Shown: positions 1,814-61,475 of the stretch, piece by piece | Numbering within the stretch: position 1 is the first letter of the stretch | Layout of the letters: every line of letters starts with the position of its first letter | Assembly (NCBI GenBank): GCA_000004695.1 | Contig: CM000153.2 | Span: 1,728,001-1,792,000, forward strand | Source: Dictyostelium discoideum | Taxonomy: Eukaryota | Reading direction: 5' to 3' | Length of the DNA stretch: 64,000 bases | The notes under the pieces: generated by a model | What the model saw: the letters and a program-made list of their open reading frames with translations, nothing else | Told to the model about the DNA's origin: nothing | Database searches by the model: none | Made by a program: the position numbers and the translations under genes

Positions 1814-2224
1814 TTATTGTTTTGAAATGTATTCCATTAAGAATTTGTAATCGTCAGATTCTTTACCGAAAGTCTTGATGACTAAGGTTGAACAAGCAAC
1901 AACTTTACGAGCAGCAAGATCTTTGTCTAATTTGCAGAGACCAGCCCATTCACCTAAAGCTTTGTTATCTGGAACTTCAATTAATGGGATGTTGTGTTCG
2001 GTGGCGAGGGCTTTAACTAAACGAACAAAGTTTGGTTCGTCACAGTTTGAAGCTAAGACACATAAACGAGCAGTACGTTTGTCGAGGGCTTTGACGGTTT
2101 CATGGAGACCACGAGCAACACCTTGGACGGCTAAAGATTCTTTGATAACCTTTTGGAGGGCAACCATTGGGTCAGTGTTTTTTTCTAATGGGTTAGCGGC
2201 AATAACTGGGGCATCTCCTTCCAT
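1814..2224 (-). CDS. rps12: 40S ribosomal protein S12 (eS12), single exon
   Basis: 136-aa ORF. The translation ([102 protein letters not shown]) aligns along its full length with eukaryotic eS12 (human RPS12 has [24 protein letters not shown] and [28 protein letters not shown]). ATG at 2224..2222. Confidence 0.92.
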   Translation of the reverse strand: [136 protein letters not shown]

Positions 2225-3487: not shown

Positions 3488-5684
3488 ATGAGGAATAATA
3501 ATAGTTTAATCTCAATAATAATTTTTATATTATTTTCAATTTTCTTATCAACAAACGAAATTAATGCAGATGATAATTGTTCAACATTAAAACAGGCAAT
3601 TTTATTTTATAAAGTAAATAATCTTTTTTTTTTATTACTAATTAATAAATAAATAAATAAATAATAAATAAATAAATAAATAATAATTTTTTTTTTTTTT
3701 TTTAAAATAGGCACAACGTGCTGGAAGATTACCAGATAAAGATATATCATGGAGAGGTGATTCAGTTTTAACAGATGCAAGTCCAGGATCATCATTTGAT
3801 TCAAATGGAGATGGTGATCTTTCAAAGGGTTATTTTGATGCCGGTGATGGTGTAAAATTTGGTTTACCAATGAGTTGGACAATGACAATGTTAGGATGGA
3901 ATTTCATTGAATATTCATCAAATATTGAATCATGCGGTTTAACCGATTTATATTTAAATGTTTTAAAATGGGGTACAGATTATATATTGGCATCACATTT
4001 AAGTGATAATGTTTTGGTAGCTCAAGTTGGTGATGGAAATGTTGACCATAGTGTATGGCAGCCACCAGAATTCATTAATTATGTACGTCCAGTGTTTTTA
4101 ATTAATTCAAGTTATCCAGGAACTGAATTAGCAATGGAAGCAGCATCAGCATTGGCAGCAGCATCAATTGCATTCAAATCAAGTAATCCATCATATGCAT
4201 CCACTTGTTTATCACATGCCAAAGCATTACATAACTTTGGTAACACATATCAAGGTTCATACTCAGTTTCAGTTCCACAGGCATCTGCATTCTATAATTC
4301 ATATTCTGGCTATACCGATGAATTAGTATGGGGTAGCGTTTGGTTATACAAGGCAACTGGTGACTCTAGTTATTTAACATTGGCTGAGAATTACTATACC
4401 ACTAATAATGTTGGTTATGCAGGTACTTCAAATTCATTCGATTGGGATCAAACTGCCACCGGCTCATCTCTATTACTTTATAAATTGACTGGAAAAGAAT
4501 TCTATAAACAAATGGTGGACCAAACACTAAGCTATTGGTCAAAAGGTGGCGGTATAACTTATACTCCAGGTGGTTTAGCTTGGATTAGAGAGTGGGGTCC
4601 ATGTAGATACGCAATGTCAATGGCATTCCTTGCAACAGTGTATGGTACTGATTCATCATTACAATTTGCCCAAAATCAATTAAGTTATGTACTTGGTGAT
4701 AAAACTGGTCAATCATTTGTTGTTGGTTTAGGTTCAAATCATCCAATTAATCCACATCATAGAGCTGCCCATCATTCAACTACTAATGATATTAATAATC
4801 CTGTAAATAATTTATATATGTTATATGGTGCATTAGTTGGTGGTCCTGGAAGTGATGATTCTTATGTTGATGATCGTTCAGATTATACAAAGAATGAGGT
4901 AGCACTTGATTATAATGCTGGTTTCGTTGGTACTTTATCTTATTTTGCAAAAGGTATTTATTTTTATTTTATTTTATTTTATTTTATTTTAAAAAAAAAG
5001 TTTTTATATTAACTAACTAAAGGTTCTTCATCCTCAACTACTACCACTTCAACTACAACGTCAAATCCAACATCTACAACATCAACTACAACTTCAAATC
5101 CAACTCCTACCACATCAACTACAACTTCAAATCCAACTTCCACATCAACCACCACTTCAAATCCAACCTCTACTTCAACCACAACTTCAAATCCAACTAC
5201 AACTACAACCACAACTTCAAATCCAACCTCAACCTCAACTACAACTTCAAATCCAACTACAACTACAACCACAACTTCAAATCCAACTACAATTACAACT
5301 TCAACAAACCCAACTACAACATCCACTCCTGCCACAACAACAACATCTACTTCAACCACAACTTCATCAGGAGATGGTACCACAACAAGTGAGACAACAA
5401 CAGGAGATTTGGTGACATCCGGAGATTCTAACGTAACACCAACTGTTCAACCAACATCTAGTTCATCAACTTCTTCAGGAACTTCAACTGGAACTTCAAC
5501 TGGAACTTCAACTGGAACTTCAACTGGAGCCCCAACTGGAACTTCAACTGGAAATAGCCAAAATCCTCCTGGAGTCGAAAAAGATGGTAGTTCAAGTGAC
5601 GCACTCAGTTTGGGTGATATCATCCCACTTTCAATCATTACATTATTCATTTTATCATCAATTCATCTCTTATTAAACAATTAA
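3488..5684 (+). CDS. Secreted glycoside hydrolase family 9 endo-beta-1,4-glucanase (cellulase) with a Thr/Ser-rich tandem-repeat linker and a GPI-anchor-like C-terminus; join(3488..3613,3711..4953,5023..5684)
   Basis: Exon 1 encodes a signal peptide (MRNNNSLISIIIFILFSIFLSTNEINA). The donor gtaaat sits at 3614 and the acceptor aaaatag ends at 3710. Exon 2 carries GH9 hallmarks (GYFDAGDGVKFGLPMSWT, NPHHRAAHHS, GALVGGPGSDDSYVDDRSDY, NEVALDYNAGFVG). A second phase-1 intron runs 4954..5022 (gtattta...ctaaag). Exon 3 is in the same frame as track ORF 5409..5684 and encodes about nine copies of TTTSNPTSTS plus (TSTG)6, ending in a hydrophobic tail (SLGDIIPLSIITLFILSSIHLLLNN). Confidence 0.88.
5060..5335 (+). 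repeat. About nine tandem copies of a 30-bp unit (acttcaaatccaac[ct]tc[ta]ac[ct]tcaac[ct]aca) encoding the Thr/Ser/Pro-rich linker of the GH9 protein
   Basis: The periodicity is directly visible. It is also responsible for the spurious minus-strand ORF 5009..5383 (VVVVGFEV repeats). Confidence 0.9.
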
Positions 5685-5960: not shown

Positions 5961-6331
5961 ATGGCAGAATTAACAAATCATTTTAATAAAGTTAATGAAC
6001 TTTTAAATGATTGGGATGGAGTTGGATTATCACATGAATTATCAATGACAGAATTAATTACCTCAATTTTAAATTCAATAAATCATAATAGTCATAGTGG
6101 TATGAGTAATCAAAAGAAACAACAAATACAAGCAAAAGTTAATCAAATTAAAAAGACAGATTTAGTTGTTAAAAGACAACAAGATATAGATACATTATGT
6201 GCAAATAAAATTCAACACAACTATAATGAAATCGTTGCATATCGTTTAAGATCAATTTCATCATTATTAGATTCAAAATATTATGATGCATTTAGATATT
6301 TAATTGAAGCTATAAAGTAAGTAATAATAAT

Positions 6332-6373
<42 letters not shown>

Positions 6374-7439
6374 TTATTTAAAATTTCATATTAAAATTAT
6401 TTATTTATTTATATTTATTTATTTAGTTCATTTGTTAAAGTATTTGAATTATGGTCACAAAATATATTATGGAGATTATCATTAGATTTACGTTTAATGG
6501 CAGAATTGGCAACTTTAAATGTTGGTAGTAATGATAGTAATAATAGTAATAATAATGTTACGATTGATTATTTTGAAGAAGCATCAAGAACATTATTAAG
6601 TAAATGTTTTCAAGCAGCAAATGCTGATAGAACTCCAAATTTAGCAGAATCAAAAAAGAATGCAGCATTAGGAGTTGTAAACCAATTATTTCAAATTTAT
6701 TTTAAAATTAATAATCTTAAACTTTGTAAAAATTTAATTAAAACTATGGAATCACCTGGTTTCCCTACATTAGAGAGTTATCCTTTAAATCAAGTTATCA
6801 CATATCGTTTCTTTAATGGTCGTTTATCAGTTTTCAATGGTCAATATAAAAAAGCACAAGAAGAATTATTATATGCATTTAATAAATGTCCAAATGATTC
6901 AATTAAAAATAAAAGGTAAAAAAAGAACATAAAAACATATAAATATACATATACATATATACTAATTATTTTTTTTTTTTTTTTTTTTAAGATTAATATT
7001 ATTATTTTTAGTACCAATGCAATTAGAACAATGTAAATTCCCAAAGAAATCATTATTAGAGAAATTTAAGTTAACTCAATTCATTGATATTGTTCAATCT
7101 ATAAAAAGTGGTAATATTAAACAATTTAATGAATGTTTGTCAACTCATCAAAACTTTTTCATTTCAAAAGGTATCTATTTGATTTTAGAAAAATTGAAAA
7201 TTATTGTCTATAGAAATCTATTTAAAAAGGTACATTTAATTACAACTGGTCAAAGAATTCCAATTGGTAATTTCGTTTCCGCTTTGAAATGGATGGAAAA
7301 TGATGCTATCGATATCGATGAAACTGAATGTATTCTATCAAATTTAATTTATAATGGTTATCTTAAAGGTTATATCTCTCATAAAGTTGCTCTTGTTGTC
7401 TCTCCAACAAATCCTTTCCCAAAATTACCTTTAAATTAA
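5961..7439 (+). CDS. PCI-domain protein PCID2 / CSN12 / Thp1-like (TREX-2 and CSN12 family); join(5961..6316,6427..6915,6992..7439)
   Basis: The three track ORFs (5961, 6497, 7017) are exons of one gene. They are joined by donor gtaagt at 6317 / acceptor tttag at 6426, and donor gtaaaaaaag at 6916 / acceptor aag at 6991. The spliced protein aligns with human PCID2: GVVNQLFQIYFKINNLKLCKNLIKTM vs [44 protein letters not shown] vs [40 protein letters not shown] vs [51 protein letters not shown] vs [28 protein letters not shown]. Confidence 0.85.
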
Positions 7440-59149: not shown

Positions 59150-61475
59150 TTAATCTAAATTACGATTTGAAGATAAAATTAATCTTTGAATATTTTTACT
59201 GAAATCATGATCGTTAACCAAGGTTTCTAAATTGATATGCATACGATATCTCCAATAATGCATTGGATTTGAAGGTTCATTAATCTTTTCTTCTTTTGGA
59301 TCTCTGCTACCATATTCACTAGAGATACCGAACCAATCTTGAATTGGAAAGATTGAAATCATAGATTGAGAATGTAAATGTTGAGTGATAACGGCCTCAC
59401 TAACATAAGGTTCACAAAAGTAAGGAGCATCACCAAACATTCCCAAGATTTTATTGTAGAAAACTTGAGAACGAGCTCTATCTTCTTCCCACCAACCTCT
59501 CAAGGTACTCATATCATGAGATGAGGTAGTATTTACAGTGAGATAGGAATATTCATTTGGATGATAGAAATCTTTATTTGAATCGGAAGGCATACGTTGA
59601 ATTCTTAAACCAAGGATACCTAAATCGTTGAGTACAGGCTCAACACATTTTGGAACCATACCTAAATCTTCACCACAAACCAACATCTTTGTGCAACCTT
59701 TAATCAAAGGTAAACGTTGAAGAGCAATTTGTGCCCAAAGTTCCTCTTGTCTTTCATAGTAGTAAGAGATGTATAAACGATGGAGAATGGTCTTGATATC
59801 ATCAGAGAGTTCATTGAAATTGCTAGTTTTGGTGATTTCAATTCTTGGATAGAAACGATTTTCATCCTCTGCATCGGCCAAGAGACTTACATTTTGAACC
59901 AATTTAAAGAGACCAGATTTATACATTGCATCCTCTTCATTGAGATTCTTTTCAATGAGACGCTCAGTGGCAAACTCTGGTTTCATATTGAAACAATTGC
60001 TTGAATATTCAACGAGGAATTTAGTTGCGACAGAATCGGCGTATTCACCAAATAACTCTCTAAGAGTATGATAACGAATGTATGGTTGAGTTAAACGATC
60101 GATATCCCAAAGACCATTGTTTTGAAGTTCACTTCTCCACAATGGTAATGATGGATTGAATTTACCCAATAAACCAGTGACACAAGTGGTTGGAATCTCC
60201 CAAATTCTAAAGAAACCCAAGATATGATCGATTCTAAATGCATGGAAATATTTTGACATTTGACCCAAACGTGAACGCCACCAAGCATAGCCATCCTTTT
60301 TCATGACTTCCCAATTGTAAGTTGGGAAACCCCAATTTTGACCATCATCAGCGAAAGCATCAGGTGGTGCACCAGTTGACATATTCATACGGAATAAATG
60401 TGGTGATACCCAAGCATCAACTGATACTCTATTGACACCAATTGGTAAATCACCTTTTAAACCGATTCTTTTAGCTGATGCATATTTTGAAGCGGCTAGC
60501 AATTGATTGTGAAGATGGAATTGAACGAAATAATAATAACGCATATCATCATAGTATTTTGAGTTTGGTTTGGATTCCTTTTCAATGTCTTCAGGAGTGA
60601 TACTACTATAGACTGGCCATTGATCGAAATCTCCACTCTTATAGGTGTCACGTAAGACACTATACAAAGCGTAAGCTTTAATCCAATCTTCACTATCCTT
60701 TACAAATTGTAAAAACTCTTTGTTTCCATCCAATGATGCCTTTTCTTTTGAATAGATTTCACGTAATAATTTTGATTTCAAATTCATAACGGCTTCATAG
60801 TCTACAGTTGTTAATTTATTTAATTTTTCACGATGTTCATTTACTTGAGCCAATATCTTTGGATCCTTGGTTATTGAATCAATGTGAATATAAATTGGAT
60901 GAAGTGCATAAACCGATACAGAACTATATGGATAACTATCTCTCCATGTATAATAGACGGTGGTATCATTGATTGGCAATATTTGAATCATATGAAGTCC
61001 TGATTGATGTGACCAATCCACCAATTGATGTAAATCGTTGAATTCACCAATACCTAAACCTTGTTTACTTCTTAATGAGAAGATTGGTACTGCAACACCT
61101 GCGCTTCTTAATAATTGACTATCCTTAAATTCACCATCGTTAAAGAAGAAATCACGATCCTCATTGGTGGTACTTGAATATTCACTTGCATGAGTGGCAC
61201 TTGCTGTGAACCATCTATCATTACCATATTCCCAATGAACAACTGATTTAATCTTATCGGCAATAATATATTTATAAGAGAATGGTAATTGATCTTTTGA
61301 AAACTCTAAATCAACTTTCCAAATTGGATAACTTTCATCACTTAATTTAACTGCTCTATCTGTTCTCCAATTACCTAATTGTGTATTACTACCAACAATA
61401 TAAATTGAATGATTTGGTGGTACATATGTTGATTTAACTTGGAAATGAATTATAACTTTATCTTTAAAAATTTAA

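Follow-up and report, generated by a model that had tools for sequence, protein, structure and literature searches.

A GH9 cellulase with a Thr/Ser-rich stalk and a predicted glycosylphosphatidylinositol-type tail in Dictyostelium discoideum and its relatives

Does a cellulase of Dictyostelium discoideum leave the cell that makes it, or might it be held at the cell surface? The question is raised by a gene at positions 3488-5684 (plus strand) of a 64,000-nucleotide stretch of the D. discoideum genome (contig CM000153.2, positions 1,728,001 to 1,792,000 of the forward strand; hereafter, the window). An original prediction, made from the letters of this stretch and its open reading frames (ORFs), held that the gene encodes a glycoside hydrolase family 9 (GH9) cellulase ending in a Thr-rich stalk and a glycosylphosphatidylinositol (GPI)-anchor-type signal instead of a carbohydrate-binding module (CBM). 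Having followed up that prediction computationally, we consider it probable that the product is a GPI-tethered GH9 enzyme, carried on an O-glycosylated stalk at the cell surface, which would trim the organism's own cellulose in late development; the cleavage of its signal peptide, the O-glycosylation, the transfer to GPI, the surface location and the substrate are all predicted parts of this proposal.

A GH9 enzyme with a predicted signal peptide and GPI-type tail

The case for tethering begins at the two ends of the protein, where the signal-peptide and GPI assessment consisted of published sequence rules together with hydropathy. The protein ends in ...DGSSSDALSLGD-IIPLSIITLFILSSIHLLL-NN (over a longer stretch, ...EKDGSSSDALSLGD-IIPLSIITLFILSSIHLLL-NN followed by the stop; the C-terminal peptide of the unprocessed protein is ...IIPLSIITLFILSSIHLLLNN), and the tail reads just as first quoted: a GSSSDALSLGD omega region, a 19-residue hydrophobic segment and NN. 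The omega region DGSSSDALSLGD, found by rule scan at residues 644-655 (5583-5618, plus strand), contains the candidate GPI attachment residues G645, S646 and S648. With the two residues that follow given in brackets, the small-residue omega/omega+2 candidates are G645 (S, S; polar spacer of 8 residues to the core), S646 (S, S; spacer of 7) and S648 (D, A; spacer of 5), and they are kept in the orthologues. Further, the KD(G)SS(S)D motif of this region is kept in D. purpureum, and SSDALS recurs in the Cavenderia fasciculata protein P0028. The hydrophobic core that follows, delimited by hydropathy and rule scan, is IIPLSIITLFILSSIHLLL at residues 656-674, with NN and the stop TAA closing the frame (5619-5684, plus strand). 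It is 19 residues long, with a mean Kyte-Doolittle value of 2.35, contains Pro, three Ser, Thr and His, and stops two residues short of the C-terminus, with neither Lys/Arg nor a cytoplasmic tail after it.

At the other end, residues 1-27 (3488-3568, plus strand; MRNNNS + LISIIIFILFSIFL + STNEINA) form a predicted signal peptide with cleavage between INA and DD; its n/h/c layout was read by rule and is shared by the orthologues. A 19-residue Kyte-Doolittle window exceeds 1.6 at both termini only, with an N-terminal peak over residues 3-27 and a second in the tail, and there is no internal hydrophobic segment. The FT-GPI criterion asks for hydrophobic helices at both ends only, the C-terminal one ending at most 4 residues from the end (PMC9876418), and this is the arrangement of the window protein. 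Every rule-based GPI criterion that we applied points the same way, in agreement with the GPI-anchor-type signal and surface tethering originally predicted; a GPI-attachment signal is the most likely function of the C-terminal ~30 residues.

The enzyme borne by these termini is a GH9 domain of the ordinary kind. Pfam PF00759 matches residues 32-451 (nucleotides 3581-4937, plus strand, across intron 1) with E=1.9e-140 and 469.5 bits against a cut-off of 27.7, covering profile positions 3-444 of 444, and the closest relative of known structure is Thermobifida fusca Cel9A/E4 (1js4; E=1.5e-113). The catalytic base pair, Asp85 and Asp88 of the DAGD motif (3837-3848, plus strand), aligns with Asp55 and Asp58 of T. 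fusca Cel9A, and the catalytic acid, Glu438 in NEVALDYN (4896-4898, plus strand), aligns with its Glu424. The full-length match and the conservation of these three residues bear out the assignment to a standard GH9 endoglucanase domain, and the enzyme looks catalytically competent.

Beyond the enzyme domain, the absence of a CBM also holds. A Pfam search of the 676-residue protein returned no domain besides GH9 and none past residue 451, and the C-terminal 220 residues are a low-complexity, Ser/Thr-rich region (40% Thr, 23% Ser and 8% Pro, or 63% Thr+Ser). A CBM encoded by an overlooked downstream exon, the case that had been set against the architecture from the outset, is excluded: the stop at 5682-5684 is followed by a 276-nt A+T-rich spacer before the next ATG-initiated ORF at 5961, and orthologue models end alike, the GH9 model at three orthologous loci stopping at the same tail with the gene for a PCI-domain protein 215-331 nt further on.

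This protein is the product of three exons, the spliced coding sequence of 2031 nt being translated into 676 residues. Exon 1 (3488-3613; residues 1-42) ends at the donor TATAAA/GTAAAT, at a junction that agrees with orthologue protein models, and is separated by intron 1 (3614-3710; 97 nt, 96% A+T, GT..AG) from exon 2 (3711-4953), which encodes residues 43-457, up to the first base of codon 457, and with them most of the catalytic domain. After intron 2 (4954-5022; 69 nt, 93% A+T, GT..AG, phase 1) comes exon 3 (5023-5684; 662 nt, all on the plus strand like the rest), the frame of which is open throughout to the stop TAA at 5682-5684. Both junctions (..FYK/AQRAG.. and ..YFAKG/SSSS..) recur in the independently annotated orthologues P0001-P0003. 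Reading through intron 2 gives ..AKGIYFYF.. and a stop, an error of the same type as the one that shortens the public D. purpureum model.

Tail and stalk among the orthologues

Syntenic orthologues are found in two D. cf. discoideum isolates (643 and 649 residues), D. citrinum (669 residues) and D. firmibasis (656 residues), with the TM7S3, rpS12, PCI and PP2C genes as shared neighbours. Between the window protein and these four close relatives, identity is 0.91-0.97 in the catalytic domain and 0.88-0.98 in the last 42 residues, against 0.51-0.74 in the linker, which is 146-179 residues long. The 19-residue core is identical to that of the window protein in D. cf. discoideum and D. firmibasis; D. 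citrinum has a single substitution in it, and D. purpureum has five, all of them conservative. Because the tail is so nearly identical and the linker so divergent among the orthologues, we read these alignments to mean that the tail signal is constrained, whereas the stalk is turning over.

The D. purpureum orthologue had to be recovered from a truncated annotation. Its public model, DICPUDRAFT_40165 (P0004, 455 residues), ends in ...ALGIYL, a read-through of the intron-2 donor. Re-splicing the locus (L004 3001-5140, GL871264.1) with a 95-nt intron and exon 3 from 4589 yields a 180-residue, Thr/Pro/Gln-rich linker of the PTQTPSQST type and the tail ...NSKDSSDGISIYD-ILPLSIITLFFISSLHLMLA, which runs to the stop; the 'gene' called at L004 4608-4916 is part of the missed exon. 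The correction also restores a tail layout that had been missed in this species. Between the D. purpureum GH9 and PCI genes, at L004 5623-6102, lies a gene for a 159-residue protein with a signal peptide, a Ser/Thr/Pro-rich body and a tail, ..SFSLYSLIPLSTFTIILISAIHLILV, that resembles the GH9 tail; D. discoideum has only the 276-nt spacer at this place. The small gene may have arisen by partial duplication of the stalk-plus-anchor cassette.

The stalk itself occupies residues 457-643 of the window protein (~190 residues; 5023-5582, plus strand) and is defined by composition; it contains no Pfam domain and is presumed to be O-glycosylated. Its Thr/Ser/Pro-rich composition and its tandem repeats fit those of the mucin-type stalk proteins of Dictyostelium, whose repeats carry O-linked sugars, and make it a candidate member of that group. 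Tandem Repeats Finder reports a 30-bp array of (T/S)xTTTSNP units at 5046-5299 (plus strand; 8.3 copies, 87% matches, score 300; alternatively, period 60 with 4.6 copies) and a 12-bp array of GTST units at 5478-5553 (plus strand; 6.3 copies, 90% matches). Anchored on AAATCCAAC, the units of the first array number eight, at spacings of 33, 33, 30, 30, 30, 30 and 30 bp; compared pairwise, they average 80% identity, with a single pair of identical units. The stalk repeats are real and far beyond chance. The arrays announced by the original prediction are therefore present, but its wording has to be relaxed: what was described as about nine near-perfect 30-bp repeats consists of eight ...TTSNP units and a further, degenerate one, which are 80-87% identical as DNA, a figure at which the claim of a perfect DNA-level repeat fails; and the (TSTG)6 block exists but reads TSTG four times, then APTG, then TSTG.

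The arrays differ from species to species. The main array is 30 bp x 8.3 (87%) in the window, about 30-33 bp x 6.4 (81%) in D. cf. discoideum, 54 bp x 4.5 (70%) in D. firmibasis and 78 bp x 2.9 (95%) in D. purpureum; D. citrinum has weak arrays plus one of 15 bp x 4.6 (98%) in its Ser-Gly block. SNP units number 8, 7, 7, 5 and 1 in the first five proteins compared. With units and copy numbers differing in this way between species, the comparison supports lineage-specific stalk repeats, shaped by repeated slippage or unequal exchange, with composition and overall length conserved. The comparison was made between species, D. cf. discoideum being ~90% identical to the window at the DNA level; length variation is observed between these sibling species, and polymorphism in repeat length within a species, as first suggested, is likely. 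Within the linker, the motif SSGDGTTTSETTTGDLVTSGDSN (window 5360-5440) is kept in close relatives while the repeats around it turn over, with a looser counterpart, TTGNGDATTGVISTG, in D. purpureum.

A dictyostelid lineage and its known counterparts

The layout extends well past the immediate orthologues. A Ser/Thr-rich linker and a terminal hydrophobic tail come together in at least 15 GH9 proteins of dictyostelids, which represent all four taxon groups and the genera Cavenderia, Heterostelium, Polysphondylium, Tieghemostelium and Dictyostelium. They comprise the five orthologues of the window gene, D. discoideum DDB_G0286321 (P0025), D. dimigraforme P0027, D. firmibasis P0009, D. purpureum P0037 and P0024, Tieghemostelium lacteum P0007 and P0018, Polysphondylium violaceum P0011, Heterostelium album P0014, C. 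fasciculata P0028 (...DDSSDALSF + tail) and a metagenomic sequence, P0010. Their tails have cores of 15-26 residues that stop 0-2 residues from the C-terminus, with no Lys/Arg beyond. Other paralogues are tail-less and end just after the catalytic domain, as does iliH/DDB_G0271314, or carry a folded C-terminal module, namely P0005 (with TETP-like repeats), P0008, P0022 and P0042, as well as P0017 with a CBM49.

In a bootstrapped neighbor-joining tree of the catalytic domains (444 columns), which serves as a rough guide with weak deep nodes, 21 tail-less or module-bearing GH9 proteins form a clade with 94% support that includes no tail-bearing member. All the tail-bearing proteins fall outside it, in a poorly resolved grade; there, the window clade has 100% support and joins the clade of DDB_G0286321 at 79%. 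Because the tail-bearing proteins all lie outside the 94% clade, the layout is, on the evidence of this tree, old and common to a dictyostelid GH9 lineage, not a one-off, and it is possibly ancestral for dictyostelid GH9. This bears on the notion that the tail stands 'instead of' a CBM: the CBM is indeed lacking, but a recent swap is not what happened, since the tail-bearing layout belongs to an old lineage apart from the CBM-bearing and tail-less forms.

The closest relative in the same genome is the uncharacterised paralogue DDB_G0286321 (Q54M00), which likewise combines GH9, a Ser/Thr-rich linker and a hydrophobic tail (..FIGGSSFLNINGLLLLLISLTLIVIF). It is 56% identical to the window protein, from which it differs in having a shorter linker (112 residues after the catalytic domain), no 30-bp array, and the standing of a mound-stage marker. 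Sheath cellulose deposition starts at about the mound stage. DDB_G0286321 was chosen as a marker for its sharp mound-stage expression, its promoter serving as a reporter in a toxicology study (PMC8538044).

The D. discoideum cellulase CelA (spore germination protein 270-6) shares with the window protein the GH9 domain, a signal peptide, a Thr-rich linker after the catalytic domain and late-development expression (PMC12821622; PMC3188802). CelA is described as a secreted cellulase whose C-terminal CBM places the enzyme on its substrate (PMC3188802). The window protein, unlike CelA, ends in a hydrophobic GPI-type signal without a CBM; having no folded carbohydrate-binding module after the linker, it belongs neither to the CelA-type GH9-CBM proteins nor to the class C GH9-CBM49 proteins. 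CelA was not among the 120 homologues listed and is here set apart by its description; the CelA-like P0005 sits inside the 94% clade, and the tail-bearing proteins outside it.

Among plant enzymes, the nearest parallel is KORRIGAN, a plasma-membrane GH9 protein needed for correct cellulose synthesis (PMC9099982; PMC8892547). Like KORRIGAN and class A GH9 in general, the window protein would be a CBM-less GH9 enzyme at the plasma membrane of a cellulose maker. KORRIGAN, however, has type II topology, its cytosolic tail and transmembrane helix lying at the N-terminus, whereas the window protein starts with a short, cleavable-type signal peptide and has a mucin-like stalk and its GPI-type anchor signal at the C-terminus. 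By this layout it falls outside class A and is no member of the KORRIGAN family, only a possible functional analogue; and because the anchor topologies are opposite, N-terminal type II in the one and a C-terminal GPI signal in the other, the tethering would be convergent, not homologous.

In overall plan, the protein also recalls Dictyostelium surface proteins of other kinds. PsA and contact site A (csA) gp80 have a globular domain on an O-glycosylated Thr/Pro/Ser stalk. By description, the likeness takes in the globular domain, the Thr/Pro/Ser-rich stalk and the C-terminal GPI or GPI-like signal, with the difference that PsA and gp80 serve as antigens or in adhesion and have no enzyme domain; that csA is GPI-anchored is cited in PMC12821622. 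GPI-anchored glycosidases are found in walled organisms too, β-1,3-glucanases among those described (PMC9099982). The GPI enzymes of fungal and plant walls (GH72 Gas/Gel, GH16 Crh and plant GH17) resemble our protein as wall-polysaccharide enzymes, often with a Ser/Thr-rich region, held by a GPI tether at the membrane-wall interface, and differ from it in belonging to other GH families with other substrates. Our literature searches found no description of a GPI-anchored GH9 protein in Dictyostelium or elsewhere.

Predicted action, alternatives and meaning

Briefly, we envisage the following course of events. The signal peptide would be cleaved as the protein enters the secretory pathway, and the ~190-residue Thr/Ser/Pro stalk would become heavily O-glycosylated and extended. 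A transamidase would then cut at a small residue within G645-S648 and move the protein onto a GPI-type lipid. The GH9 domain would thereby be displayed outside the plasma membrane, some tens of nanometres from its outer face, at the membrane-wall interface. The substrate there would be cellulose made by the organism itself, nascent or amorphous, in the sheath, the stalk or the wall of the spore, and the task of the enzyme would be trimming or editing as opposed to the digestion of distant cellulose. Sequence rules and conservation support the steps of signal cleavage, stalk O-glycosylation and GPI transfer; for display at the membrane-wall interface and the editing of own cellulose in late development, we infer a role from the surface position and the developmental timing, which together make own cellulose the most likely substrate.

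The timing comes from a probable identification of the gene. By accession order (Q54PY0, Q54PX9, then the next gene) and by STRING homology links, which connect Q54PX8 to celA, iliH and Q54M04, the window gene is probably UniProt Q54PX8/DDB0185916. That protein appears in a STRING table derived from the late-development clusters 5-8 of a life-cycle proteome (PMC12821622). The candidate identifiers DDB_G0284313 and DDB_G0284317 gave no match in the literature or the proteome supplements. Two points weigh against our reading as a whole: Q54PX8 was identified through accession order and STRING links, not through a sequence match, and the 19-residue core (mean Kyte-Doolittle value 2.35) has sufficient length and hydrophobicity for a membrane-spanning segment.

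Of the alternatives, the one that fares best, while still unlikely, is that the anchor is transient, the enzyme being shed after GPI addition, or passed into the sheath, stalk tube or spore coat, to reside in the matrix. Fungal GPI wall proteins pass from their anchor into the extracellular matrix in this way, and a long mucin-like stalk suits embedding in a matrix. The probable AX4 protein is, moreover, among late-stage proteins, including those of the fruiting body, and living membranes are scarce in the stalk. An enzyme set loose in this manner would, however, have no CBM to retain it on cellulose.

Rather less credible is the view that the hydrophobic stretch simply crosses the membrane once, as a type I transmembrane anchor with two cytoplasmic residues, which would leave the enzyme membrane-bound but not GPI-linked. 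The length and hydropathy of the core suffice for a spanning helix, and the core is conserved as well as the catalytic domain, somewhat more than one would usually expect of a signal destined for removal. Yet no Lys/Arg or cytoplasmic tail follows the core in ~15 homologues, and the homologous cores vary over 15-26 residues and include Pro, Ser, Thr and His, with small-residue triplets always 5-10 residues upstream. This is the pattern of a GPI signal, by the FT-GPI features (PMC9876418) as by Eisenhaber-type rules.

A digestive or germination cellulase like CelA, degrading spore-coat or foreign cellulose and with a tail of no relevance, is improbable. CelA, whose expression falls in prespore cells and at germination (PMC12821622), does belong to the catalytic family of the window protein, but the lineage of the latter is well separated (94% bootstrap) from that of the CelA-like and tail-less GH9 proteins, the window protein is without the CBM described for CelA, and its tail is evidently conserved. 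Finally, that the gene is an annotation artefact or a pseudogene with an untranslated, repeat-rich exon 3 hardly deserves credence: a collection of 15 billion proteins lacks the exact 676-residue protein and any D. discoideum protein more than 95% identical to it (the neighbouring rpS12 and DDB_G0284315 products are present with AX4 accessions), and the D. purpureum orthologue is annotated without exon 3, but the frame is open over all 662 nt of that exon, the splice sites are canonical, frame and tail are kept in five species, and exon 3 is present in three independent annotations.

Upstream of the GH9 gene, a TM7S3-like gene (697-1626) and rpS12 (1814-2224, minus strand) encode products identical to AX4 DDB_G0284315/Q54PY0 and Q54PX9, respectively. 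Downstream, the ORF that starts at 5961 probably represents exon 1 of the PCI-domain gene; the ORFs 5961-6320 and 6497-6919 both begin with MAEL.. and look in-frame, with a (TAA)17 tract at 6322-6373 between them, and they are presumably exons of one PCI-domain (PCID2-like) gene. No second GH9 gene is present in the 64-kb window, where tblastn matches this gene alone, and a cluster of cellulose genes is ruled out, the ten largest other ORFs being housekeeping genes; the large ORFs of the window include those for symplekin, TCP-1, an FtsH-type protease, an RRM protein, diphthamide synthesis, cyclophilin, GH77 and syntaxin. The GH77 ORF, for a 4-alpha-glucanotransferase, lies at window 59150-61024 on the minus strand. 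A Val/Glu/Gly-rich antisense ORF of 124 residues at 5009-5383 (minus strand) is not a gene; it is the reverse complement of the Thr-codon repeat.

For the GH9 family, the GPI type would be a fourth topology beside the type II membrane, secreted, and secreted CBM-bearing forms. For Dictyostelium, the setting is favourable, as it has a single cellulose synthase, is haploid and is easily subjected to knockouts. In organisms that make cellulose, a cellulase repeatedly accompanies the synthase (KORRIGAN in plants, BcsZ in bacteria), for reasons that are debated (PMC8892547); our literature searches found no cellulase tied to cellulose synthesis in Dictyostelium. A conserved, probably surface-tethered GH9 lineage with two D. 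discoideum members only provides a short list of candidates for such an enzyme, and the DDB_G0286321 reporter (PMC8538044) is a ready expression tool for the tail-bearing GH9 proteins. Should the tail prove an ordinary transmembrane anchor, or a knockout show no wall phenotype, the window gene would be one more uncharacterised developmental cellulase. A bolder idea, which we hold only tentatively and think doubtful, is that the ancient dictyostelid GPI-tethered GH9 lineage, represented by the window gene and DDB_G0286321, is the amoebozoan counterpart of KORRIGAN and BcsZ, acting beside the synthase DcsA and needed for normal microfibrils. If that were true, a third major lineage would have arrived by convergence at a tethered cellulase to meet the need for such an enzyme in cellulose synthesis.

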